Source of the DNA: Haliangiales bacterium
Lineage (GTDB): Bacteria; Myxococcota_A; Polyangia; Haliangiales; Haliangiaceae
Direction: 5' to 3'
Length of the DNA stretch: 48,377 nt
Assembly (NCBI GenBank): GCA_038321315.1
Contig: JBBQEX010000005.1
Span: forward strand, 164,097 to 212,473
Position numbers and translations under genes: made by a program. Shown one piece after another: positions 18,928 to 33,573 of this stretch; position 1 is the stretch's first letter; every line of letters starts with the position of its first letter. The notes under the pieces are model-generated. The model saw only the letters and a list, made by a program, of their open reading frames with translations, had not been told where the DNA came from and ran no database searches.

Positions 18928-20039
18928 TCACCACGCGCCGCAGCGGATCGGGCCGAACCGATCGGCGTCATCGAGCCGATCGCGGATCAGCGTGCCCATG
19001 CGGCTCGTCGACACCACCGCGCCGCCAGATCCGGGTGGCGCGATGTCGGCGGTCCGGCTCCCTGCTGCGATCGTCGCTGCGACCGCGTCCTCGACCGCGT
19101 GCGCCTCGGCGTCGAGCCCGAGCGAGTGCCGGAGCAGCAACGCGGCGCTGAGGACCGTGCCGATCGGATTCGCCGCGCCGGTGCCGGCGATGTCGGGCGC
19201 CGAGCCGTGGATCGGCTCGTACAAGCCGCACCGGCCGTCTCCGAGCGACGCGCTCGGGCACAAGCCGAGCGAGCCCGCGAGAACCGAGGCCTCGTCGCTG
19301 AGGATATCGCCGAACATGTTCTCGGTCACGATCACGTCGAATTGCGCGGGCGAGGTGATCAGGCGCATCGCGGCCGAATCGACGAGCTGATGGTCGAGTT
19401 GCACGTCGGGGTAGCGAGCCGCGACCTCGGTCGCGATCTGTCGCCACAGGCGCGAGGATTCGAGGACGTTCGCCTTGTCGATCGACGTGACGCGACCCCG
19501 CCGGCCGCGCGCGAGCTTGAACGCGAGCTCGACGACGCGCTCGATCTCGTGATCGGAGTACTCCAGCGTGTCGACCGCGCGCCGGCGACCGGCGTGCTCG
19601 TCGCGCCGGCGCGGGCCGAAGTACAACCCACCGGTCAGCTCGCGGATCACGAGGACATCGACGCCGGCGAGCCGCTCGGGGCGGAGCGGCGAGCAGCCGG
19701 CGAGCTCGCTGTACGGTCGCACCGGACGAAGATTCGCCCACAGCCCGAGTTGCCTGCGCAGCGCGAGCAGGCCCTGCTCGGGCCGGACCGGGGCGTTCGG
19801 ATCGTCCCAGCGCGGCCCACCGACGGCCCCGAGCAAGATGGCATCGGCCTCGCGACAGCTCGCGAGCGCGGCATCCGACAGCGCGGTGCCGTGCGCGTCG
19901 ATCGACACACCGCCGATCGGCTGCTCGACGAACTGAAAGCGGTGACCGAACAGGCTCGCGACGGTGTCGAGGACGCGGCGGCCTTCCTCGACGACCTCGG
20001 GGCCGATGCCGTCACCGGGAAACAAGACGATCGTGGCCT

Positions 20040-20043
<4 letters not shown>
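18928..20043 (-). CDS. leuB: 3-isopropylmalate dehydrogenase
   Basis: [18 protein letters not shown]...NLRP...[10 protein letters not shown] signature. ATG at 20043 overlaps the upstream gene's stop (ATGA). Confidence 0.95.
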
Positions 20044-21621
<1,578 letters not shown>

Positions 21622-21638
<17 letters not shown>

Positions 21639-22194
21639 ACGCCTCGATGTCGGGAAGGTGAGTCATCAGGAACCCGAGCTCGTCGACGCCGTCGAGCAAG
21701 CAGCGGCGCGCGAACGCGTCGACGGTGAACGCGGTGGTCGCGAACCCCGGCGCGCGCAGCTCCCGAGCCTCGAGATCGATCGTGATCTCGAGCGCGGCAT
21801 CGGCGGCGATCGCCGCGGCGAGCTGGGCATGGAGGGTGCTCGGCACGACCACCGGGACGAGCCCGTTCTTGAGCGCGTTGCCGCGGAAGATGTCGGCGAA
21901 CGACGGCGCGACGACGGCGCGAAACCCGCCGGCGACGAGGGCCCACGCGGCGTGCTCGCGCGACGAGCCGCATCCGAAGTTGTCGCCGGCGACGAGGATC
22001 TGCGCGCCGGCGCTGTGCGGCGCCCCGATCGGGCAGTCCGGACGCGCGCGCCAGTCGGCGAACAGCGCGTCGGCGAGCCCGGCCTTGTCGGTGCCCTTCA
22101 GGTATCGCGCGGGGATGATCTGATCGGTATCGACATCGGCGTCGAGCACCAGGACGGCACGTGCCACGAGCTGGGTGAAGCGTGGGGTGGTCAT
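21622..22194 (-). CDS. leuD: 3-isopropylmalate dehydratase small subunit
   Basis: [17 protein letters not shown] motif. 190 aa. ATG at 22194 overlaps the leuC stop (ATGA). Track ORF 21622..22719 has a spurious N-terminal extension. Confidence 0.9.
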
Positions 22195-25133
22195 GCGGTC
22201 CTCGTCTCGGGCAGGAACGTCCGCGGGTCGGTGACTCGACCGGTCACGGCCGAGGCCGCGGCGGTCTGTGGCGACGCGAGCAGCGTGCGGCCACCAGGGC
22301 CCTGGCGACCCTCGAAGTTGCGGTTCGACGTCGACACCGCCAGCTGGCCGGGCTGCAGCTGGTCGCCGTTCATCGCGATGCACATCGAACATCCGGGCTC
22401 GCGCCACTCGGCGCCCGCGTCGCGGAACACGCGATCGAGTCCCTCGGCTTCGGCCGCGGCCTTGATCGCGGCGCTGCCTGGCACGACCAGCATGCGCACG
22501 CCGCGGTCGACCCGACGGCCCCGCAGGATGTCGGCCGCGGCGCGGAGATCGCCGATCCGCGAGTTCGTGCACGAGCCGACGAACACGACATCGACCTTCA
22601 TGCCGAGCAGCGGGACGCCGGGCGCGACGCGCGTGTAGCGCACCGCGGCCTCGAGCTGCGGCGACGTCTCGGGCACCCGCTGCGTGATCCCGATCCCGTG
22701 GCCGGGGTTGGTGCCCCACGTGATCATCGGCTCGAGCACCGTGGCATCGATGTGCAGCTCGCGATCGAAGACCGCGCCGTCGTCGGTGGCGAGCGCGCGC
22801 CAGCGCTCCACCGCGCGATCCCAGTCCGCGCCCGACGGTGCGTGGGGCCGGCCCGCGAGGTACGCGAACGTCGTGTCGTCAGGCGCGATCATGCCGGCGC
22901 GTGCACCGGCCTCGATCGACATGTTGCAGACCGTCATGCGGCCATCCATGTCGAGCGCGCGGATCGCCTCGCCGGCATACTCGATCACGTGGCCGGTCGC
23001 GCCACCGATCCCGATCTTCGCGATCATCGCGAGGATCAGATCCTTCGCGGTGACGCCACGGCCCGGTAGACCGTCGAACGTCACGCGCAACGTGCGCGGC
23101 CGGCGCTGCAGCAGGCACTGGGTCGCGAGGACGTGCTCGACCTCGCTCGTGCCGATGCCGAACGCGAGCGCGCCGAACGCGCCGTGCGTCGACGTGTGCG
23201 AGTCGCCGCACACGATCGTCATCCCGGGTTGCGTGAGCCCTTGTTCCGGGCCGATCACGTGCACGATGCCGTGACCCGGCGAACCGAGCGCGTGCAGGGT
23301 GATCCCGTGCTCGGCGCAATTCGTCTCGAGCCGGCGCAGCTGGGCGCGCGCGGCGTCGTCGGCGATCGCGAGTCCGCCCGCGCGCGTCGGCGTCGAGTGA
23401 TCCATCGTCGCGACCGTGCGGGCCGGTCGCCGGACGGGCAGGCCGCGCGTCGCGAGGCCCGCGAACGCCTGCGGCGACGTGACCTCGTGAACCAGGTGGA
23501 GATCGACGTAGAGGATCGCGGGCGCATCGGGCGGCGACGCCGCGACATGCGCGTCCCAGACCTTGGCGAACAGCGTGCGTGGTGGCGGCCGCGTGTCGAG
23601 CGCGCGGTCGAGCACGCGATTGACGGCGGCGAGGTACGCCTTCGCACTCGCGACGACGATGTCGGTGTCGGCGCCGTGCCCGCGGGCGATGCCGGTGCCG
23701 GCTCCAGGTCGAACGCGGACGCTGACCTCGCCGAGTGCGTCGATGCCGGCGGTCACGGCATCGACGTGGTACTCGAGGAGCTCGACGCGAACTCCGACGA
23801 TGGCGTCGATCGCCTTGAACGCGGCGTCGACCGGTCCGGTGCCGATCGCGGCCTGCACCACGAGCTGGTCGTCGGGTCCGCGCAGGCGCACGGTGGCGGT
23901 CGACATCCCGGTCGTGCCGCAGCCGACCTGCATGCCGTCGAGCACGTAGTGCGCCGATGGTGCACCCCGCTCGCTCGCGGCCAGCGCGAGCAGGTCGGCC
24001 TCGCCGACGTACTGCTTGCGATCCGCGATGGCCTTGAAGCGCTCGAACGCGCGCGCCAGCGCCGCACCGTCGAGGCTGATGCCGAGGGCGGCGAGCTGGT
24101 CGGCGAACGCATGACGCCCCGAGTGTTTGCCGAGCACGAGGCGACTGCCAAGCGCGCCGACGTCCTCGGGTCGCATGATCTCGTAGGTCGCCTGGTGCTT
24201 GAGCATCCCGTCCTGGTGGATGCCCGACTCGTGCGCGAACGCGTTGGCTCCGACCACCGCCTTGTTGGGTGGCACGACGAATCCGGTGCAGCTCGCGACC
24301 AGCTTCGACAGCCGTGTCAGCTGTGGCGTCTCGATCCCGGTGTCGAGCCCGATCACCGCGCGCCGCGTTCGCAGCGCCATCACGAGCTCCTCGAGCGAGC
24401 AGTTGCCGGCGCGTTCGCCGATGCCGTTCACGGTGACCTCGGCCTGGCGCGCGCCCGCTCGCAGACCCGCGAGCGTGTTGGCGACCGCGAGGCCGAGGTC
24501 ATCGTGACAATGAACCGAGATGATCACGCCGCTCGCGCCCGGGACGTTCGCGAGGATCCCGGTGATCAGCGCACCGAACTCGTCGGGGAGCGTGTAGCCG
24601 ACGGTGTCGGGGATGTTGAGCGTCGTCGCGCCCGCCGCGATCGCGCGCTCGAGCACCTCGTAGAGGAACGCGGGATCGCTGCGACCGGCATCCTCGGGCG
24701 AGAACTCGACGTCATCGCAGTAGGTCTTCGCGTAGGCGACGATCTCGGATACGCGGGTCTTCACGTCGACACGCGACATCCGCAGCTTGTGCTCGAGGTG
24801 CAGATCGCTCGTCGCGAGGAACGTGTGGAGGCGCGGGCGCTGGGCGCCGCGGACCGCCTCCCACGCGCGATCGACGTCGACGCGGGTCGCGCGCGCGAGG
24901 CCCGCGATGATCGGCGGCTCGGGCCTCGCGTCGTGCGGCATGCCGACCTCGCGTGCGATCGCACGCACGGCCTCGAGATCGCCAGGAGACGCGGCGGGAA
25001 AGCCGGCCTCGATCACGTCGACCCCGATGCGCGAGAGAGCGCGCGCGATCTCGAGCTTCTCGGCGGGCTGGAGCGTCGCGCCCGGCGCCTGTTCGCCGTC
25101 GCGCAGCGTGGTGTCGAAGATGCGGATGTACAT
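22191..25133 (-). CDS. leuA-leuC: 2-isopropylmalate synthase (LeuA) fused in-frame to 3-isopropylmalate dehydratase large subunit (LeuC); 980-aa single ORF
   Basis: The N-terminal 515 aa carry the LeuA TIM barrel ([18 protein letters not shown]...) and the LeuA_dimer domain ending [19 protein letters not shown] 12-aa linker [12 protein letters not shown] follows, then the LeuC N-terminus [11 protein letters not shown]...[17 protein letters not shown] with [19 protein letters not shown] and [11 protein letters not shown] motifs. The junction was translated by hand: the two halves share one frame, and no stop was found in either alternative frame across the junction. Confidence 0.85.
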
Positions 25134-25134
25134 C

Positions 25135-26154
25135 TCACTCCCCCGGCTTGACGGTGACGGGATCGAGGAACGGCATCATCGCGCGCAGCTCCGCGCCGAC
25201 CTTCTCGATCGGCTGTTCCTGCTCGGCGCGACGGCGTGCCTTGAACTCGGGCGAGCCGTTTCCGACCTCGGCGATCCACGCCTTCGCGAAGCTGCCGCTG
25301 CGAATGTCGGCGAGCAGCTTCTGCATCGCCGCCTTGGCCTCCGGACCGATCACCTTGTCGCCGGCGACGTAGTCACCCCACTCGGCGGTGTCCGACACCG
25401 AGTAGCGCATGTAGTTGAGTCCGCCGCGGTACATGAGGTCGACGATCAACTTGAGCTCGTGCAGACACTCGAAGTACGCGACCTCGGGCTGATAGCCCGC
25501 GTCGGTCAGCGTCTCGAAGCCCGCCTTGACGAGCGCGGAGACGCCGCCGCACAACACGGCCTGCTCGCCGAACAGATCGGTCTCGGTCTCCTCGGCGAAC
25601 GTGGTCTCGAGCACCCCGGCGCGCGCGCATCCGAGCGCGGAGGCGTACGCGAGGGCGAGCGCGTGGGCCGCGGGCGACGACGCCGGATGGACCGCGAGCA
25701 GTGCCGGCGTGCCGCCGCCCTCGCGATAGGTCTCGCGGACGCGATGGCCGGGCGCCTTCGGCGCGATGAGAGCGACGTCGACGCCGACCGGCGGCGTGAT
25801 CGTGCCGTAGTGGATGTTGAAACCGTGCGCGAACAGGAGCGTCTTCCCGCTGCCGGCGGCGAACTGTGGGGCCACGCGGTCCCGCCAGATCTCGGCCTGC
25901 GCGGTGTCGGGCGCGAGCATCATGAGCACGTCGCACCACGCGGCCACCTCGTCGACCGACCCGACGGTGAGGCCGGCCTCCTTCGCCGTGGCGATCCGGC
26001 GCGAGGTCGGCGCGAGGCCGACCCGGACCTCGACGCCGGAGTCGCGCAGGTTGAGCGCGTGCGCGTGCCCTTGCGAGCCGTAGCCGACGACGGCCACCTT
26101 CTTCGATTGGATCAGACGGAGATCAGCGTCGCGGTCGTAGAAGATGCGGGCCAT
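25135..26154 (-). CDS. ilvC: Ketol-acid reductoisomerase (class I)
   Basis: [40 protein letters not shown]. 339 aa. ATG at 26154. Track ORF 25135..26376 has an Arg-rich spurious extension. Confidence 0.95.
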
Positions 26155-26693
26155 GGGGAGGTTCCTTGTGGTTGGGCTTCTGCGGAAGTCGAAGAGGGGG
26201 ATCGTGGCGTCGGCTCGCCGCGGGTCATCGCGACCACGCCGGTGCGGACCATCTCGAGGACACCCTCGGGTGCGAGTACGCCGACGAGGTCGTCGATCTT
26301 GTCGTGGGTCGCGGTCAGCTCGATGGTGACGAGCTCGGCGGTCATGTCGATGACCCGCGCGCCGAACACCTCGCACACCTGCAGGATCCGAGGACGCGAG
26401 CCGGCGCTGGCGCGCACCTTGATGAGCGCGAGCTCGCGGGCGATCGACGGCGAGAACGTGACGTCCTCGACGAGCAGGACGTTGACCAGCTTGTAGAGGT
26501 TGGCCTCGATCCGCCGCGCGCTGTCCTCGTCGGCCTCGATCACCAGCGTGAGACGCGAGACGCCGGGCTCGGCGGTGCGCCCGACGGTCAGCGACGCGAT
26601 GTTGAACCCGCGGCGCCGGAACAGCGACGCGATCCGGTTCAGCACGCCGGGCTTGTCCTCGACGCGCGCGATGAACGTGTGGGTCTTGGTCAT
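26112..26693 (-). CDS. ilvH: Acetolactate synthase small (regulatory) subunit
   Basis: ACT domain [38 protein letters not shown]. Its 3' end overlaps the ilvC start by 43 nt in this frame, so the true stop or a C-terminal extension is uncertain. Confidence 0.85.
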
Positions 26694-26694
26694 G

Positions 26695-28431
26695 TCAGGG
26701 GTCCTCGGCGGTCTCGACCAGGGCGCTGGTAGGCTTGGGGCGGCGGATCATCTCGGCGAGATCCGCGCCGCTCGGCACCATCGGGTAGACCGAGTCCTCT
26801 TGCTCGACGCGGAAGTCGATCACCACCGTGCCGGGCGTCGCCTGCGCGGCACGCACCGTGCTCTCGACCTCGGCGCGCTTGGTCACGCGCATCGCGGTGA
26901 GGCCGTGCGCCTCGGCGAGCTTCACGAAGTCGGGCGACCGCATCGGCGTCGACGAGTAGCGACCGCCGTAGAAGAACTGTTGCCACTGCCGGACCATCCC
27001 GAGATAGCCGTTGTTGATGATCGCGACGTTGACCTTCACGCCCTCCTGCGCCGCGGTCGACAGCTCGCATGCGGTCATCTGGAAGCCGCCGTCGCCGGCG
27101 ATCACCCAGATCTCCTCGTCGGGGCACGCGAACCGCGCGCCGATCGCGGCGGGCAGCGCGAACCCCATCGTGCCGAGCCCGCCGGAGGTCAGGAGCTTCC
27201 GCGGGTAGTCGTGCTTGTAGTACTGCGCCTCCCACATCTGGTGCTGGCCGACGTCGGTCACGACGAGAGCGCGGCCCTCGGTGAGCCGCCAGAGATCGTG
27301 GATCACGTGGGCCGCGTAGAGCCGACCCTCGTCGGGCAGGCCCTGGATGTCGCGCACCGCGCTGTCGCCCTTGAGCGCGTCGATGTGCGCGAGCCACGGC
27401 GCGCGCTGGCGCGCGGCGACCCGCGGCGTGAGGGCCTCGAGCACGCGACCGACGTCGTCGACCAGCGCGACGTCGACCTTGACGTTCTTGCCGACCTCGC
27501 TGCGATCGATCTCGACGTGGATCTTGCGCGCGCTCGGGGCGTAGGTCGCGAGCCGGCCGGTGACGCGATCGTCGAACCGCATGCCGAGCGCGATCAACAG
27601 GTCGGCCTCCTGGATCGCGTGGTTGACCCACGCCTCGCCGTGCATGCCCATCATGCCGAGCGCGAGCGGGTGGCTCGCGGGGAACCCCCCGAGGCCGAGC
27701 AGCGTCGCCGCCACCGGGATGTGGGCCTTGTCGACGAACGCGCGCAGGAGGTCACCGGCACCCGCCTTGACGATGCCGTGGCCCGCGAGCACGACGGGAC
27801 GCTCCGCGCGATCGATGAGATCCGCGGCGCGCGCGAGCAACTCGTCGGGCGCGTGGGACGACGGTCGGTAGCCGGGCAGCGTCGGCGCGCCGGTCGGCGA
27901 GCGCCAGGTGCCGGTCGCTTGCTGTGCATCCTTGCAGATATCGACGAGGACCGGCCCGGGTCGACCGCTGCGCGCCAGGAAGAAGGCTTCGCGAATCGTC
28001 GACGCGATGTCGTCGACGCTGGTGACCAGGTAGTTGTGCTTCGTGATCGGTAGCGTCACGCCGGTGACGTCGGTCTCCTGAAACGCGTCGCTGCCGAGCA
28101 GCGTCGACGACACCTGGCCGGTGATGAACACGACCGGGACCGAGTCCATCATCGCGGTCGCGATCCCGGTGACCAGGTTCGTCGCGCCCGGGCCGCTGGT
28201 CGCGAGCGCGACGCCGACCTTGCCCGAGGCGCGCGCGTAGCCGTCGGCCATGTGCGCGGCGCCCTGTTCGTGCCGGACCAGCACGTGGCGGATCCGATCC
28301 GCGTACTTCAGCATCGCGTCGTACGCCGGCATGATCGCGCCGCCCGGATACCCGAACACGACCTCGACGCCCTCGGCGACGAGCGCCTCCCACAGGATCT
28401 CCGCGCCGGTGAGCCGACGCCCATCGGTCAC
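26695..28431 (-). CDS. ilvB: Acetolactate synthase large subunit (TPP enzyme)
   Basis: GTG start at 28431 ([31 protein letters not shown]), preceded by a GGAGG Shine-Dalgarno 5 nt upstream, and overlapping the ilvD stop (GTGA). TPP-binding GDGGFQM...NN motif. The track's N-terminal 170 aa are an Arg-rich artifact. Confidence 0.9.
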
Positions 28432-30089
28432 GTGAGCCTCCAGGTCTTGACGTCCGTGGTGATCGCGCCGTCGGAGGCACTCGAGACGGTGGCCGCGTAC
28501 TTCCGCATCACGCCGATGAGCGGGCGTTGTGGGCGCTGCAACGGCACGCGTCCGGTGAGATCCGCGAGCACGTCGAGCCGGCGGTTGGCGACGTCGATCC
28601 GGATCCGATCGCCGTGACGAAGCAGGTCGATCGGGCCACCGGCGGCGGCCTCCGGGCAGACATGGCCGACCATGAACCCGTGCGTCGCGCCGCTGAACCG
28701 ACCGTCGGTGACGAGCGCGACGTCGTCGGCGAGGCCAGCGCCGACCAGCGCACCGGTGACCTGGAGCATCTCGCGCATCCCGGGGCCGCCGCGTGGACCC
28801 TCGTTGCGGATCACGATCACGTCGCCGCGGACGATCGTGCCGGCGGTGACCGCGGCGTATGCGGTCTCCTCGCTGTCGAACACGCGCGCCGGCCCCTCGT
28901 GGAGCTCGCGGTCGTGGCCAGCGAGCTTCACCACGCATCCATCGGGAGCGAGCGAGCCGCGCAGGATCGCGAAACCGCCGCGCGCCTTGATCGGCGCCCC
29001 GACCGCGACGATCACCTGCTGGCCGTCGGCTTCACGCGCCGCATCGGCCTCGCCGCGCAGCGTCTTGCCGGTGACCGTCGGCGCGTCCTCGAGGAGGTTC
29101 GCGTCGAGCAACCGGCGCACGAGGAGTCCGATGCCACCGGCGGCGTACATGTCGGCGGCGGCGAAGCGCCCACCCGGCTTCAAGTCGGCGATCACCGGCG
29201 TGCGCGCGGCGATCGTGTCGAACTCGTCGATCGTGAGGGGCAGCCCGGCCTCGCGGGCGATCGCGAGCATGTGCAACACGCCGTTGGTCGAGCCGCCGGT
29301 CGCCGCGATCGACACGATCGCGTTGCGCAGCGAGGTCGGCGTCAGGAACTGTCGCGCGTTCCGCCCGTCGCGCACGAGCGCCATCACCATCTCGCCGGCC
29401 TCGCGCGCGACCCGCGACTTGTCGGGCGCGGTCGCGGGAACCTCGCCGGCGCCGATCGCCGAGAGCCCGAGCACCGCGAGCGCGGTCGCCATCGTGTTGG
29501 CGGTGAACTGGCCACCGCACGCGCCCGCGCCGGGGCACGCGGCATCCTCGAGCGCGCGCAGGTCTCCGTCGGTCATCGCGCCGCGCGCATGGGCGCCGAC
29601 CGCTTCGAACACGTCCTGGATCGTCACGTCCTTGCCGCGAAACCGACCGGGCTGGATCGGCCCGCCGTAGAACACGAGGCCGGGCAGGTCGAGGCGCGCG
29701 AGCGCCATCGCCGCGGCCGGCAGGGTCTTGTCGCATCCGACAAGCACGACCACGCCGTCGACCATGTGCCCGAACGCGACGAGCTCGATCGAATCGGCGA
29801 TCACCTCGCGCGACACGAGCGAGGCCCGCATGCCCTCGGTTCCCATCGTCACGCCGTCGGACACCGCGATCGTGTTGAACTTGATTGGGGTGTTTTCGGC
29901 CGCGCGCACGCCGCGCTTGACCTCCTCGGCGAGCGCGCGCAGATGCAGATTGCACGGCATGACGTCGGTGTGGCTGCCGACGACGGCGATCAGCGGCCGC
30001 TCGAGGTCAGCGTCGGTGAGTCCGGTGGCCTTGAGCATGGCGCGTGCGGGCGCGCGGCTCGGGCCCTTCTTCAGTTGATCGCTTCTCAT
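28428..30089 (-). CDS. ilvD: Dihydroxy-acid dehydratase
   Basis: [26 protein letters not shown]...CDKTLP...SDGRFSG motifs. ATG at 30089. First gene of the minus-strand ilv-leu cluster. Confidence 0.95.
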
Positions 30090-30107
30090 GTGGCTTCTGA
30101 ATTCCTC

Positions 30108-30153
30108 GTCGGAAAAACAAAAGACCCCGCCACCCAGGAGTGGGTGCGGGGCC
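30108..30153 (-). terminator. Intrinsic terminator (attenuator terminator) in the ilvD 5' leader
   Basis: Minus-strand RNA is CCCCGCACCC-acuccu-GGGUGGCGGGG, a 10-bp GC stem with one bulge, followed by UCUUUUGUUUUUCC. The U-tract ends about 24 nt upstream of the ilvD ATG. Confidence 0.6.
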
Positions 30154-30184
30154 AGTGGTCGTGAACTCGTTAGTTCAGGATCGG

Positions 30185-30337
30185 CTACCCGCACCCGGGG
30201 CTAATCAGGGAGATGCCAATAAGGCGAAGTCCCTCGAGCCCGAGCGCGATCAGCGATACGAGTGCCGGCGCTACGCACGCCCCGCCGTAGATGCTGGTCG
30301 GCATCTCCGTCGGCGAGTCGTTCGCGTCAAACTGCAT
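30185..30337 (-). CDS. Branched-chain amino-acid leader peptide (ilv/leu attenuator leader), 50 aa
   Basis: Hand-translated sequence is [50 protein letters not shown] followed by a TAG stop. 14 of the last 29 residues are Ile/Leu/Val. Several use codons rare for this genome (GTA x2, CTT x2, ATT x2). The stop codon sits inside GGGUGCGGGUAG, a perfect 9-nt complement of the terminator 5' arm CCCGCACCC. Confidence 0.55.
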
Positions 30338-30538
30338 CGCCTGATCACGCTAAGGAAAATGCCGCACCGGGTCAAGAAGTTTTGACGCGGCATGTCGTGA
30401 AGCGAGACTAGGAGTGCAACATTACAGTCGAAATCCAAGATGAGATTTCTGCGATCGTTGTGAATTATCAGATGGTGAGTCCGCTACAGCGCTGCGGTCG
30501 CGCGATTCGTGTACGCGCCATCACCGGAATCGGTGGAA

Positions 30539-30945
30539 CTACAGCGGCGCGGCATAGCAGAAGCGCGGGCCAAGCTTCTCGGTACAGTCCCGAGCGGCGG
30601 CGACGCCGAGCGCGTTGTCGTGGAGGCACAGGCGCGAGATGGTCGGAACGAGTTGCGAAGACTCGCCGACGAGGGCGTGCGCTCCCTCATCGGTGATGGC
30701 GTTGTCTTGCAACAGCAGATCGACGACGCGCGCAGCCGCTGGGGCTTCGGCGAGGGCGCGCGCGCCGGCGTCACCGAGCCGATTCCCGTTGAGAAAGATC
30801 CTGAGCGGCAGGCGAGGGGCGCGCGCGAGGATGGCGCCAGCCTCGGGGCCCAGCTGGTTGTGATCGAGCTCGATCACGTCGAGCCGCGCGAAGGCAGGGT
30901 GCGCCACGATCTTCGCGAGGCCGGCATCGTCGATCGCGCAGCGGC
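30539..30945 (-). pseudogene. Frameshifted C-terminal continuation of the TIGR02996/LRR gene (LRR units in the -1 frame)
   Basis: The alternative frame reads AIDDAGLAKIVAHPAFARLDVIELDHNQLGPEAGAILARAP...LLLQDNAITDEGAHALVGES..., clearly LRR, continuing the upstream gene after a single-nucleotide frame change around 30930..30950. Confidence 0.45.
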
Positions 30946-33573
30946 AAGGGTCATCCCGCGTAGCTCTGGGAGGGCGTCGAGGAGAGCGATCGCTCCGTCG
31001 GCGCCCAGCTCGCAGTCCCGCAACAGCAGCCTGCGGAGCAGTGGCAGGCTGGCGAGCGAACGCACGATCTCGGGGCCGAGACGGCGATCGACGCACGGGC
31101 CGACCACCAACCGGCGCAGGGTCTTCGCGACGCGCCCGCGTGCGAGCGCGCCCAGGGCCATCTCGTCGAACCGGTTCTCGCCGAGGTCGAGACTCACGAG
31201 CTCGAGCTCGGCAAGCGCCGCGACACCCACATTGCCTACACCCACGTTCGAGATATCGAGCCACGCGAGCCCGGACGCCGAGGCGAGCGCCGCAACACCC
31301 CCGTCACCGATGGCGATTCCGCCGAGCTGCAAGCGTTCCACGCCAAGCTTCGCCAGCGTCCGCGCGCCTCGGACCCCGATCGGATTGCCGCCCAGATCGA
31401 GGTGCTTGAGCGACGGCAGCCGCGTCAACGGCGCCACATCGTCATCGGCGAGCTGGCAATGATCGAGCCTCAGGTCCTTCAACCTCGTGAAGCGGCTCGC
31501 GCCTCCCGCGCCGAACAACGCGCCCGTCGCGGCGCGGAGCGCCACTTCACCGAGGTCGAGCGTTTGCAGCTGGTCTCGCGGCCCGATCGATCCGACCTCC
31601 TCGATCGAGAGCTGCGCACCGCGCAGCCCCAGCTCGCGGAGGTCGGGAAACCGTCCCGCGAGCCGACGCACGATCTGGTCTCCGAATCGCTCGAGGGTCT
31701 CGCCGTCCGGTCCATCCACCGCGAACACGGGCCTCTTGAAATCGAGGATCGTGAGTCGCTCGAGCCTCGGATCGTCGAGCACGCGCGCCGGGTCATCGAT
31801 GACCTCGTTGCGGTAACTCCTGAAGTAAAGGCCCTGCAGTGGTGGCGAGAGCGCGAAGGCCTCGTCGAGATTCGCGGCGTACGTGCCCCAGCGCACCTCG
31901 ATGCCCTCCACGAACCCGCGGTCCCACCGATATCCGCGCTTGCCCCACGCGCGCCCGTGCTGCGCGAGCAGCTGCTCGACGCGGATGGTTAGCAACTCGC
32001 GCTCCGGATCGTCCTCGTGGAGGCCGGCGATCCTGCATTGCGCGACGATCAGCTCGCCTCGCGGGTCGCCGCGTTCGGTGAGGAGGTCGGCCCACACGAG
32101 CCGCGGCGCGTCGTCGTCCGGGGTCGCCGCGATCTGCGCGAGGATGCTCGCGTCGGCGAGCTTGGCCATCGCGCGCTCGAGATACGGCCGGTCGTCGTCG
32201 TCCTTTGGAAGCCGCGCGCGCTCCCACGCGAGATCCTCGATGGCACCCTCGACGTCGCCGGCCATCGCCCGAAACTCCGAGCGCCACCGCCGCCAGCCGG
32301 GCAGCTCGCGCCCGAGCATCTCCGCGAGCGCCGCGAAGACGCGAAGCCCGAACCTCCCGGTCGCCGGCGTGCTCGCCTCGTAGCCGACCGACGATCGGAT
32401 GAAGTGATAGACGTCGACCCCGTCCTTCAACGTGGCCAGCTCCGCTTCGGCCGCCGCCGACAAGATGGGTGCGTCCACCTCCACCGAAGCCGCATCGGGC
32501 CAGTCGATGACGACCTCGAGGAGACGGCGATGGCTCAGACAGTCGCCGTAGACAAGGAGGTCGCGCAGCGCTTCGTGCGGCGACACGGCCGACAACCCGA
32601 CCAGCGTGCGACACAACACCTCGCGGAGTGGACGGCGCAGCACCTCGAGGAACTCGGCCGAGCCGCCGGCGATCATCGCCTGTAGCTCGGCCTCGGGACA
32701 TGCGCGCTCGCTGGTCACGCCCTCGTCGAAGTCTTCGATGAAGAGCTCGCCGTTTCGCCCGAGGTACGTCGTGTGCAGGCGCGAACCCCCGATCACGACC
32801 TGCATGCCGTCTCGGATCCCGGCGATCACGCGTTGGATCTCGTCCGCGCCGAGCTCGAGCGTGCTGCGCGGTGGCTCGCGGGTCACGTGCGCGTACGTGG
32901 ACGTCGAGATGAATTGAAACGTCGCGCGGCAGCGCGTACAGCGCAAGCGCCCGGCACGCCACGCGTCCCCGGTCTCCACGCTCGTGAGCGTGACGAACTG
33001 CGACCGCGGGAACGCGCGGATGTCGCCGTTCGTCATCCCATCCCAGACCGCGCACGAACACGGCGCGGGGGTGCGGGACTCCCACGCGATCCCCATCTGT
33101 TGTTCGCGCGCAGCCGGCACGTTCGCGCGGAAGATCCGCACGTACGCGGCCGCCTCCTCGGCGCGCCCGACGGCCGGCTCGGAGAGTTGCTCGACGAGTG
33201 CGCGCGCGACACGCTCCCGATCCTCGCCGTCGCCCGCGGCGCGCACGAGGCGATCCGCGAGCATCATCGGATCGGCGACGTGCGGTTCGAGCAGGGCATC
33301 CGCGAATTCGAGATGATCCCTCGTGATGAGCGACGTCACCACGACGGCGCTGTCGTCGTCGTCCCAGGCGCGCGGCGATCCGTAGACGCCCTGATCGAGA
33401 TCGAGCGTCCGCCGGAGCAGCACGTCGGGCTCCCCGGGATGCACGAGGTCGAGGCGGGTCCAGGCGCCTTCTCGCCGCGCGCTCCAGCTCATCGCATCGA
33501 TCTCGTCGGGCGTGTTCGCGCGAACGACCAGCACGGTCAGCGACCGCGTCGGCGACCGAGGTTGCGCGGCCAT
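30874..33573 (-). CDS. Large hypothetical protein: N-terminal unknown domain + TIGR02996 repeat-companion domain + RNI-like leucine-rich repeats (main frame)
   Basis: RLVWADLLTERGDPRGELIVAQCRIAG matches the TIGR02996 signature. LRR units follow (LKHLDLGGNPIGVRGARTLA, LDISNVGVGNVGVAALA, ...). The last 20 or so residues of this frame (MTLAAARSTMPASRR...) are non-LRR garbage, consistent with a frameshift near 30940. Confidence 0.75.
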   Translation of the reverse strand: MAAQPRSPTRSLTVLVVRANTPDEIDAMSWSARREGAWTRLDLVHPGEPDVLLRRTLDLDQGVYGSPRAWDDDDSAVVVTSLITRDHLEFADALLEPHVADPMMLADRLVRAAGDGEDRERVARALVEQLSEPAVGRAEEAAAYVRIFRANVPAAREQQMGIAWESRTPAPCSCAVWDGMTNGDIRAFPRSQFVTLTSVETGDAWRAGRLRCTRCRATFQFISTSTYAHVTREPPRSTLELGADEIQRVIAGIRDGMQVVIGGSRLHTTYLGRNGELFIEDFDEGVTSERACPEAELQAMIAGGSAEFLEVLRRPLREVLCRTLVGLSAVSPHEALRDLLVYGDCLSHRRLLEVVIDWPDAASVEVDAPILSAAAEAELATLKDGVDVYHFIRSSVGYEASTPATGRFGLRVFAALAEMLGRELPGWRRWRSEFRAMAGDVEGAIEDLAWERARLPKDDDDRPYLERAMAKLADASILAQIAATPDDDAPRLVWADLLTERGDPRGELIVAQCRIAGLHEDDPERELLTIRVEQLLAQHGRAWGKRGYRWDRGFVEGIEVRWGTYAANLDEAFALSPPLQGLYFRSYRNEVIDDPARVLDDPRLERLTILDFKRPVFAVDGPDGETLERFGDQIVRRLAGRFPDLRELGLRGAQLSIEEVGSIGPRDQLQTLDLGEVALRAATGALFGAGGASRFTRLKDLRLDHCQLADDDVAPLTRLPSLKHLDLGGNPIGVRGARTLAKLGVERLQLGGIAIGDGGVAALASASGLAWLDISNVGVGNVGVAALAELELVSLDLGENRFDEMALGALARGRVAKTLRRLVVGPCVDRRLGPEIVRSLASLPLLRRLLLRDCELGADGAIALLDALPELRGMTLAAARSTMPASRRSWRTLPSRGST

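Follow-up and report, generated by a model that had tools for sequence, protein, structure and literature searches.

The ilvD gene of a Haliangiales bacterium (contig JBBQEX010000005.1) is preceded by a short open reading frame (ORF) that is rich in codons for isoleucine (Ile), leucine (Leu) and valine (Val), and by a hairpin that resembles an intrinsic transcriptional terminator. This arrangement raises the question of whether transcription of the ilv-leu genes located behind it is controlled by attenuation. A preliminary description of the window, by which we mean the whole stretch of 48,377 nucleotides (nt) of DNA that was analysed, had proposed an attenuator of the trp/ilv/leu type at this position. 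The in silico analyses presented here make it very probable that the region is a ribosome-mediated (leader-peptide) attenuator of the ilvL type, which would determine whether transcription from a sigma-70-like promoter continues into ilvD and the other ilv-leu genes. The proposed logic is supported by the window itself, in which the features that such a switch needs at the sequence level are present or predicted, as well as by the comparison of related loci.

The leader ORF and its alternative RNA helices

The leader ORF of 50 codons is present on the minus strand exactly as had been described (the coordinates of this and the other features are compiled in Table 1), and its final codons are GGG UGC GGG, followed by UAG. 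Fourteen of the 50 codons specify Ile, Leu or Val, and 13 of these are found within the last 29 residues. Hence, the end of the peptide is indeed rich in these three residues, but the count of 14 previously given for the last 29 residues does not hold; 14 is the number that fits the 35 residues quoted at the time. Six of the 14 codons are rare ones, GTA, CTT and ATT being used twice each. The claim that these codons are rare in this genome is borne out by the eight operon genes, in which GTA accounts for 0.6% of the Val codons, CTT for 2.0% of the Leu codons and ATT for 1.1% of the Ile codons. The G+C content of the genome is 69%, and the regulatory codons of the leader are of the rare, A/U-ending type.

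The stop codon TAG directly follows the sequence GGGTGCGGG (30196..30188). As noted before, the segment next to the stop, GGGUGCGGG, is a perfect 9-nt complement of CCCGCACCC, which forms part of the 5' arm of the downstream hairpin. This hairpin (30152..30124) has the sequence GCCCCGCACCCA-CUCC-UGGGU(G)GCGGGGU and a calculated energy of -21.6 kcal/mol (z -3.6), and it is also flagged by a simple terminator scan. The U-tract behind it (TCTTTTGTTTTT / UCUUUUGUUUUU) spans positions 30124..30113. The preliminary description was therefore right in placing a hairpin with a U-tract ahead of ilvD, although the distance between the last U and the ATG is 23 nt and not 24 nt.

Folding of the RNA, which had been suggested as a check, predicted two more helices besides the terminator (3:4). 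The antiterminator helix formed by regions 2 and 3 (2:3) has an energy of -30.7 kcal/mol (z -4.6). The helix in which codons 28-34 pair with the stop-codon region (1:2) has an energy of -38.3 kcal/mol (z -2.8) and is part of the minimum-energy fold of the whole leader. The three helices 1:2, 2:3 and 3:4 are mutually exclusive. When regions 2-4 are folded alone, the best structure is the antiterminator (-39.2 kcal/mol); when regions 1-4 are folded together, it is the combination of the 1:2 helix and the terminator (-69.1 kcal/mol, z -5.1). In addition, the duplex that the stop-codon region forms with the terminator's 5' arm is more stable than expected by chance, with -26.5 kcal/mol versus -16.5 kcal/mol in shuffled sequences (z -3.0, p 0.005), which is better than 199 of the 200 shuffles.

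Table 1. Positions in the window of the leader, its predicted RNA structures and the genes that follow
Feature	Position	Strand	Basis or remarks
-35-like hexamer TTGACC	30370..30375	minus	TTGAC(C/T/G) at the same place in L086, L081, L003, L001 and L007
-10-like hexamer TAGCGT	30347..30352	minus	17-nt spacer to the -35 hexamer; ends 9 nt before the leader ATG
Leader ORF, 50 codons plus TAG	30337..30185	minus	ATG at 30337; stop TAG at 30187..30185
Region 1, 5' arm of the 1:2 helix, GCUGAUCGCGCUCGGGCU, codons Leu-Ile-Ala-Leu-Gly-Leu	30237..30254	minus	RNAfold
Apical stem-loop of the 1:2 hairpin, with the rare codons CTT CGC CTT ATT GGC ATC	30207..30234	minus	Folding; CTTATT is found again in related leaders
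Region 2, AGCCCCGGGUGCGGGUAGC, core GGGUGCGGG at 30196..30188, includes the leader stop	30184..30202	minus	Pairs with region 1 or region 3
Small spacer hairpin, CC-UGAACU-AACG-AGUUCA-CG	30159..30180	minus	Compatible with the antiterminator and terminator states alike; kept in L086 and L081
Region 3, UGGCCCCGCACCC, common to the antiterminator (2:3) and the terminator (3:4)	30142..30154	minus	Folding
Intrinsic terminator, 12-bp hairpin with one bulged G, and U-tract	30113..30152	minus	Folding, terminator scan
Shine-Dalgarno sequence GAGGAA of ilvD	30102..30107	minus	Kept in L086 and L081
ilvD, dihydroxy-acid dehydratase, first structural gene	28428..30089	minus	ATG at 30089; NCBIfam NF002068, 730.8 bits
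ilvB, ilvH, ilvC, leuA-leuC (single ORF), leuD, cimA and leuB	18928..28410	minus	NCBIfam matches

Conservation in near relatives and in other phyla

Related loci, 160 in number, were gathered by scans with IlvD. Among species representatives, the best IlvD matches are 67-69% identical and belong to metagenome-assembled genomes (MAGs) of a "delta proteobacterium", Myxococcales and Kofleriaceae, as well as to an Acidobacteria MAG. These matches are compatible with the myxobacterial origin suggested in the preliminary description and make it plausible. The two nearest loci are the metagenome contigs L086 and L081, whose IlvD proteins are 91% and 84% identical, respectively. Both loci retain the promoter-like site with an unchanged distance to the ATG, the Ile/Leu/Val-rich ORF, the segment GGGUGCGGG, the spacer hairpin, the terminator and the Shine-Dalgarno sequence of ilvD. 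Their leader peptides end in ...LGLEGIGLISLISLLVISPGCG (L086) and ...GLAVIGLLLILPGCGQPI (L081), in each case followed directly by the stop codon. The insertions and deletions that distinguish the window from these two relatives are 3, 9 and 9 nt long inside the ORF, i.e., all multiples of three, and 1 nt or 7-8 nt long outside it, which is the pattern predicted for a translated reading frame. The same layout is found in L003 (a Myxococcales MAG, with a peptide ending in ...GLIGLISLIGSRCGPPA before the stop), L001 (the "delta proteobacterium" MAG) and L007 (a Kofleriaceae MAG), and L003 and L001 also keep the mini-ORF, the antiterminator segment and the terminator. Thus, the search of related ilvD upstream regions that had been proposed showed the mini-ORF and the hairpin to be kept in L086, L081, L003 and L001. 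An in-frame ATG at codon 12 was considered as the true start of the leader and was rejected; it is not kept in L081.

The promoter-like site TTGACC-17-TAGCGT is located just upstream of the leader ATG, and not downstream of it. It is conserved in the window, L086 and L081, similar sites are present in L001, L003 and L007, and it was only through this conservation that it was recognised. All six related leaders have a TAnnnT hexamer 7-9 nt ahead of the start codon. Transcription is therefore predicted to start 0-4 nt before the leader ATG, which would leave a short 5' untranslated region or none. No Shine-Dalgarno sequence is present ahead of the leader ATG in the window, and none is conserved among the related leaders. 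Translation of the leader therefore probably takes place on an mRNA that is leaderless or nearly so, considering that 9 nt separate the end of the promoter-like site from the ATG and that a Shine-Dalgarno sequence is lacking.

Two further conserved stretches lie on either side of this site. A block of ~60 nt just upstream of the -35 hexamer (~30380..30440, minus strand; GACTGTAATGTT...CGACATGCCGCGTCAAAACTTC) is kept in L086 and L081 despite their different upstream genes, and may be a regulator-binding or UP-like site of the ilv promoter. The 28-nt stretch GACGCGAACGACTCGCCGACGGAGATGC, which is situated early in the leader ORF (30299..30326, minus strand), is identical in L086 (~2263-2290) and, when the whole leader is folded to minimum energy, belongs to a long 5' hairpin that takes in the start codon. 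By analogy with hairpin H1 of Corynebacterium glutamicum, this 5' hairpin might gate leaderless initiation.

To define how widely the arrangement occurs, loci were scored with a detector that calls a strong hairpin with a T-run when the stop codon of an ORF with at least eight Ile/Leu/Val among its last 25 residues lies within 110 nt upstream. By this definition, 45 of the 159 ilvD upstream regions are positive, compared with none of the 159 reverse complements, 2 of the 160 regions inside ilvD and none of the 106 other flanks; the Escherichia coli ilvL attenuator, used as a positive control, passes. The positive loci belong to Lysobacterales, several groups of Acidobacteriota, Alphaproteobacteria, Planctomycetota, Rhodothermales, Holophagae and Obscuribacter-type MAGs. 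A promoter-to-start spacing comparable to that of the window (7-14 nt) is found in 14 of the 45 loci, acidobacterial and planctomycete ones included, and the leader stop is always within reach of region 2.

The complementarity of regions 2 and 3 exceeds that of shuffled sequences over the 45 loci (mean z -2.2; p<0.05 in 28 loci), and the two partners change together between lineages, being GGUGCGGG/CCCGCACC, GCGCGGG/CCCGCGC, GAUGAUGGCC/GGCCAUCAUC or GGGGCGC/GCGCCCC. We also analysed a plain, unfitted MAFFT alignment of 20 diverse leaders (alignment A2), which does not include E. coli. In this alignment, the nine antiterminator pairs are standard pairs in 85.6% of the cases, versus 36-60% when the partners are slid, and three pairs are altered on both sides. 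The covariation score of the 2:3 helix is 0.181 versus 0.091 for shuffles, none of the 500 shuffles scoring as high. The outer pairs of the terminator are almost invariant and so tell little about covariation. The codon usage of the leaders points in the same direction. Rare Ile/Leu/Val codons account for 169 of the 508 such codons in the 45 leader tails, versus 26 expected from the ilvD gene of each locus, and ATT, CTT and GTA dominate among them even in genomes of ~70% G+C. In different phyla, the reading frame again shows both the Ile/Leu/Val enrichment and the choice of rare codons, and the remainder of the peptide is variable. The ilvD leaders of other phyla are alike in position and logic, and differ by lineage in helix sequences, peptide lengths and N-termini.

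The ilvD leaders of other phyla also have in common with the window a CUUAUUA(G/C)C motif together with rare AUU, CUU and GUA codons. The motif CUUAUUAGC / CUUAUUACC, which encodes Leu-Ile-Ser/Thr with rare codons, recurs in the ilvD leaders of many phyla; it is found at 30210..30220 (minus strand) in the window and in loci that include L001, L003, L028, L029, L035 and L086, and its form in E. coli ilvL (L161 250-262) is GUGAUUAGC. At the level of the sequence, this motif is more specific than richness in Ile, Leu and Val alone. Two sub-types can be distinguished among the positive phyla. That of Planctomycetota (L018, L104 and L110) has a peptide ending in ...RVIRILRLPLR before the stop and the switch GGGGCGC/GCGCCCC, and that of Acidobacteriota (L023, L027, L047, L122, L127 and L130) has the peptide ...VVRI(I/T)PVI(V/I)RG... 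and the switch GAUGAUGGCC/GGCCAUCAUC; in both, a promoter TTGACT-17/18-TAT(A/C)(C/T)T is located 9-14 nt before the start codon. Many of the loci without such a leader (L002, L004, L082, L084, L088-L091, L095 and L098) contain GTGATAGAAGC or GTGGTATAAGC ~10-25 nt before the ilvD start, which looks like the conserved -10 region of a nearly leaderless ilvD gene, i.e., a different regulatory layout.

A covariance model, R1, was built from alignment A2, of which the window is a member. R1 finds ~38 ilvD-linked sites on the ilvD strand among the 160 loci. In the window it finds exactly one site (30114..30231, 80.4 bits, the window being a member of the seed). Although E. coli is absent from the alignment, R1 matches the ilvL attenuator of E. 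coli K-12 (L161 248-379) over the full length of the model with 41.5 bits (E ~1e-11 for the 701-base locus). The match covers AUUAGC, GUGCGGG and the terminator, whereas 8.4 bits were obtained for the terminator on its own on the opposite strand. The E. coli sequence reads ...GUG AUU AGC ... AUC CCA CCG UGC GGG GCU ... UAG, followed by CCCCCGCACCGAAAGGUCCGGGGG-U8. As in the window, there is a short ORF that mixes Ile, Leu and Val codons, and ..AUUAGC.. is followed by a segment rich in G (GUGCGGGG in E. coli and GGGUGCGGG in the window), whose codons specify -Cys-Gly- and which is complementary to the terminator arm CCCCGCACC. A small spacer, the hairpin, the U-tract and an operon including ilvD come next. 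The detector assigned to E. coli ilvL a terminator of -21.1 kcal/mol, 12 Ile/Leu/Val among the last 25 residues and a distance of 20 nt between the stop and the terminator. On these grounds, the element is, as judged from its sequence, a relative of the E. coli ilvL attenuator. There are also differences. The operon is ilvG-M-E-D-A in E. coli and ilvD-B-H-C-leuA/C-D-cimA-leuB here, with ilvD as the first gene. The E. coli ORF runs nine codons past region 2, whereas the stop codon abuts region 2 here. Finally, E. coli has AAGAAAAGACAAA before the leader ATG, whereas in the window no Shine-Dalgarno sequence precedes this codon, the promoter-like site ends 9 nt before it, and the leader is probably leaderless.

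The proposed switch, its alternatives and known systems

The features described above suggest the following mechanism. Transcription would begin with the leader ATG or a few bases ahead of it, and a ribosome would load on the leaderless 5' end and follow the polymerase. With ample charged Ile, Leu and Val transfer RNAs (tRNAs), the ribosome would reach the TAG and, because this codon abuts GGGUGCGGG, would cover region 2. When no ribosome is present, region 2 would be held by region 1. In either case region 3 would be free, the 3:4 hairpin with its U-tract would form, and transcription would terminate 23 nt before ilvD (~30113), giving a transcript of ~225 nt. A shortage of Ile, Leu or Val would make the ribosome stall on one of the Ile/Leu/Val codons between about codons 22 and 42, notably on the rare GTA, CTT and ATT codons in and around region 1. 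The stalled ribosome would disrupt the 1:2 helix, so that region 2 could pair with region 3 at a time when region 4 has yet to be transcribed; no terminator would form and the operon would be transcribed. A change in GGGUGCGGG is predicted to lock termination, and a compensating change in CCCGCACCC/GGGUGGCGGG to restore the switch. A crude footprint model from which region 4 is absent points the same way, region 3 being sequestered to 88% for stalls at codons -35 to -9, to 56% at codons -7 and -6, and to 44% for a ribosome at the stop. We infer where transcription starts, that the ORF is translated, how the switch is timed and how it responds to the supply of amino acids.

Several observations weigh against attenuation of this type. 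The switch is reproduced only imperfectly by folding at equilibrium. If region 4 is included, the terminator remains the outcome for most positions of the stalled ribosome, and if it is left out, the 2:3 helix is favoured even by naked RNA. The model therefore depends on co-transcriptional timing. When ribosome masking at equilibrium was applied to the full transcript, only 9 of the 45 loci passed all three criteria used; the decision being kinetic, such masking folds count as weak support only. The last ATT (codon 45), and probably also the CTG at codon 44, are too close to region 2 to serve as sites of relief. The evidence for the 1:2 helix consists of its energy and three near-identical relatives and, because there are only these three, it is without covariation support. 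Also, the leader is longer than classic ones (50 codons versus 32 for E. coli IlvL), and a generic consensus promoter scan called no site ahead of it, the promoter falling under the threshold because its -10 hexamer matches the consensus at only three of six positions.

Could the hairpin instead be the intrinsic terminator of the co-directional LRR gene upstream, the Ile/Leu/Val-rich ORF being a chance frame in the spacer? The LRR gene is indeed located on the same strand and ends at 30539, and no other terminator-like site was found between it and ilvD. However, the hairpin is located ~390 nt past the LRR stop codon, with the conserved promoter-like site in between. Moreover, L086 has a divergently transcribed S9 peptidase gene as its upstream neighbour and the upstream sequence of L081 is unrelated, yet both retain the ORF and the hairpin, which assigns the hairpin to ilvD rather than to the LRR gene. 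The specificity of the ORF-plus-terminator design for ilvD upstream regions (45 of 159, versus 0-2 in the controls) argues in the same direction. The comparison of relatives thus largely refutes this explanation, which we regard as very improbable. Just as improbable is that the terminated RNA of ~225 nt acts mainly in trans as a small RNA related to sX13 of Xanthomonas. This possibility arises from a match of Rfam family RF02232 to 30118..30228 over the full length of the model (E 0.0011). Its score of 30.5 bits is, however, below the gathering score of 50, and most of it is contributed by the CCCCGC/GCGGGG terminator; non-standard pairs are numerous in the first two stems of the alignment, which also lacks one C-rich loop. 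The position, the coding frame and the covariation fit an attenuator, and the ilvL-type model scores far better (80.4 bits).

The explanation that comes somewhat closer, though we still consider it unlikely, is that a terminator/antiterminator switch does exist but responds to a factor other than a translating ribosome, for instance a protein, an uncharged tRNA or a small ligand, with the ORF being incidental. It draws on the fact that translation of the ORF is deduced from the sequence, on the missing Shine-Dalgarno sequence and on the imperfect switch obtained when a modelled ribosome is included in equilibrium folding. Against it stands, first of all, the frame itself, which is preserved by insertions and deletions in multiples of three, and whose in-frame Ile/Leu/Val enrichment and rare codons recur across phyla with the stop always within reach of region 2. 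A search of 29800..30800 against Rfam 15 with E values up to 10 revealed no T-box, no riboswitch and no leader of the Leu, Thr, His, Trp or other families; apart from the sub-threshold sX13 match, this permissive search gave two chance-level matches only, and nothing in the whole window reached a gathering score. The kinship with E. coli ilvL, whose dependence on the ribosome is textbook knowledge, also speaks for a ribosome-mediated switch. Furthermore, the apparent absence of a ribosome-binding sequence has a precedent, since a leaderless leader peptide is documented for IlvL of C. glutamicum (PMC11857589).

If attenuation by a leader peptide operates here, expression of the cluster is predicted to be set by the levels of charged Ile, Leu and Val tRNAs and not by a dedicated repressor. 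Attenuation of branched-chain genes by leader peptides is textbook knowledge for enterobacteria. Other branched-chain attenuators have been documented in Corynebacterium (PMC11857589, PMC10272879), Staphylococcus (PMC5794164) and Listeria (PMC5864092). The IlvL system in front of ilvBNC of C. glutamicum resembles the window in having mutually exclusive anti-antiterminator, antiterminator and terminator hairpins, a leaderless leader peptide and a high G+C content (PMC11857589). It differs in that it regulates ilvB-N-C and not a cluster led by ilvD, and in belonging to the Actinomycetota; the comparison with it is one of described features. The same holds for the ilvBN leader of Caulobacter crescentus, which, according to an account that cites Tarleton et al. 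1994 (PMC4117421), contains tandem Ile/Val codons followed by a rho-independent terminator. It is another non-enteric Gram-negative case, but as described there it precedes acetolactate synthase genes. We found no paper on branched-chain leader-peptide attenuation in Myxococcota and nothing specific for delta-proteobacteria, although deltaproteobacterial cases may be contained in the broad survey by Lopatovskaya et al. 2010 (Mol Biol 44:128). Likewise, the ilvD-linked leaders of other phyla are unannotated, and no description of them was found in the literature.

The novelty implied by the preliminary description is nevertheless overstated: the element is related to E. coli ilvL, the same design is present before ilvD in many phyla, and the branched-chain attenuators listed above were already documented. 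What appears mildly new, as far as sequences can tell, is a cross-phylum sequence family that is tied to ilvD and is not in Rfam, and the apparent leaderless start. It is conceivable, if on balance doubtful, that the region represents an old, sequence-conserved ilvL-type element made up of RNA and peptide, absent from Rfam, that travels with ilvD over at least seven phyla (sharing the CUUAUUAGC motif, the GGUGCGGG segment and the CCCCGCACC arm), is leaderless here and in some Acidobacteriota and Planctomycetota, and possibly has a second role in trans through its 50-residue peptide or the ~225-nt RNA. A second role in trans has been reported for some trp leaders. The current understanding of attenuation would not be changed by the element. 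If the reading is true, leaderless leader-peptide attenuation would extend beyond the Actinomycetota. The apparent leaderless start, conserved in position, offers a testable case outside that phylum of coupling between ribosome and polymerase from the very 5' end. For annotation, the element would mark the regulatory start of the 11-kb ilv-leu cluster in a poorly studied soil lineage of high G+C content. More generally, one recognisable attenuator family, of which E. coli ilvL is the known member, stands before ilvD in many phyla, and a curated model of it would aid annotation and the calling of operon starts.

Genes on either side of the leader

NCBIfam matches confirmed the identities of the genes in the 11-kb cluster that the leader had been said to head (Table 1). 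From the tight spacing alone, we infer that the rest of the cluster is on one transcript with ilvD. The ATG at 30089 was taken as the start of ilvD; it is preceded by the conserved GAGGAA and agrees with the N-terminus of the protein family. A GTG at 30194 was rejected as an alternative start, because its frame would cross the terminator.

Within the cluster, leuA and leuC form one uninterrupted ORF of 980 codons (22191..25133, minus strand), of which residues 2-510 correspond to LeuA and residues 518-973 to LeuC. The junction between them contains neither a stop codon nor an ATG or GTG for leuC, and the ORF may encode a genuine fusion of LeuA and LeuC or may result from an error in the sequence. 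On the other side of the leader, the upstream LRR / TIGR02996-domain gene is present as two overlapping ORFs in different frames of the minus strand, 30874..33573 (899 aa) and 30539..31264 (241 aa, LRR_6), which suggests a frameshift or an assembly error.

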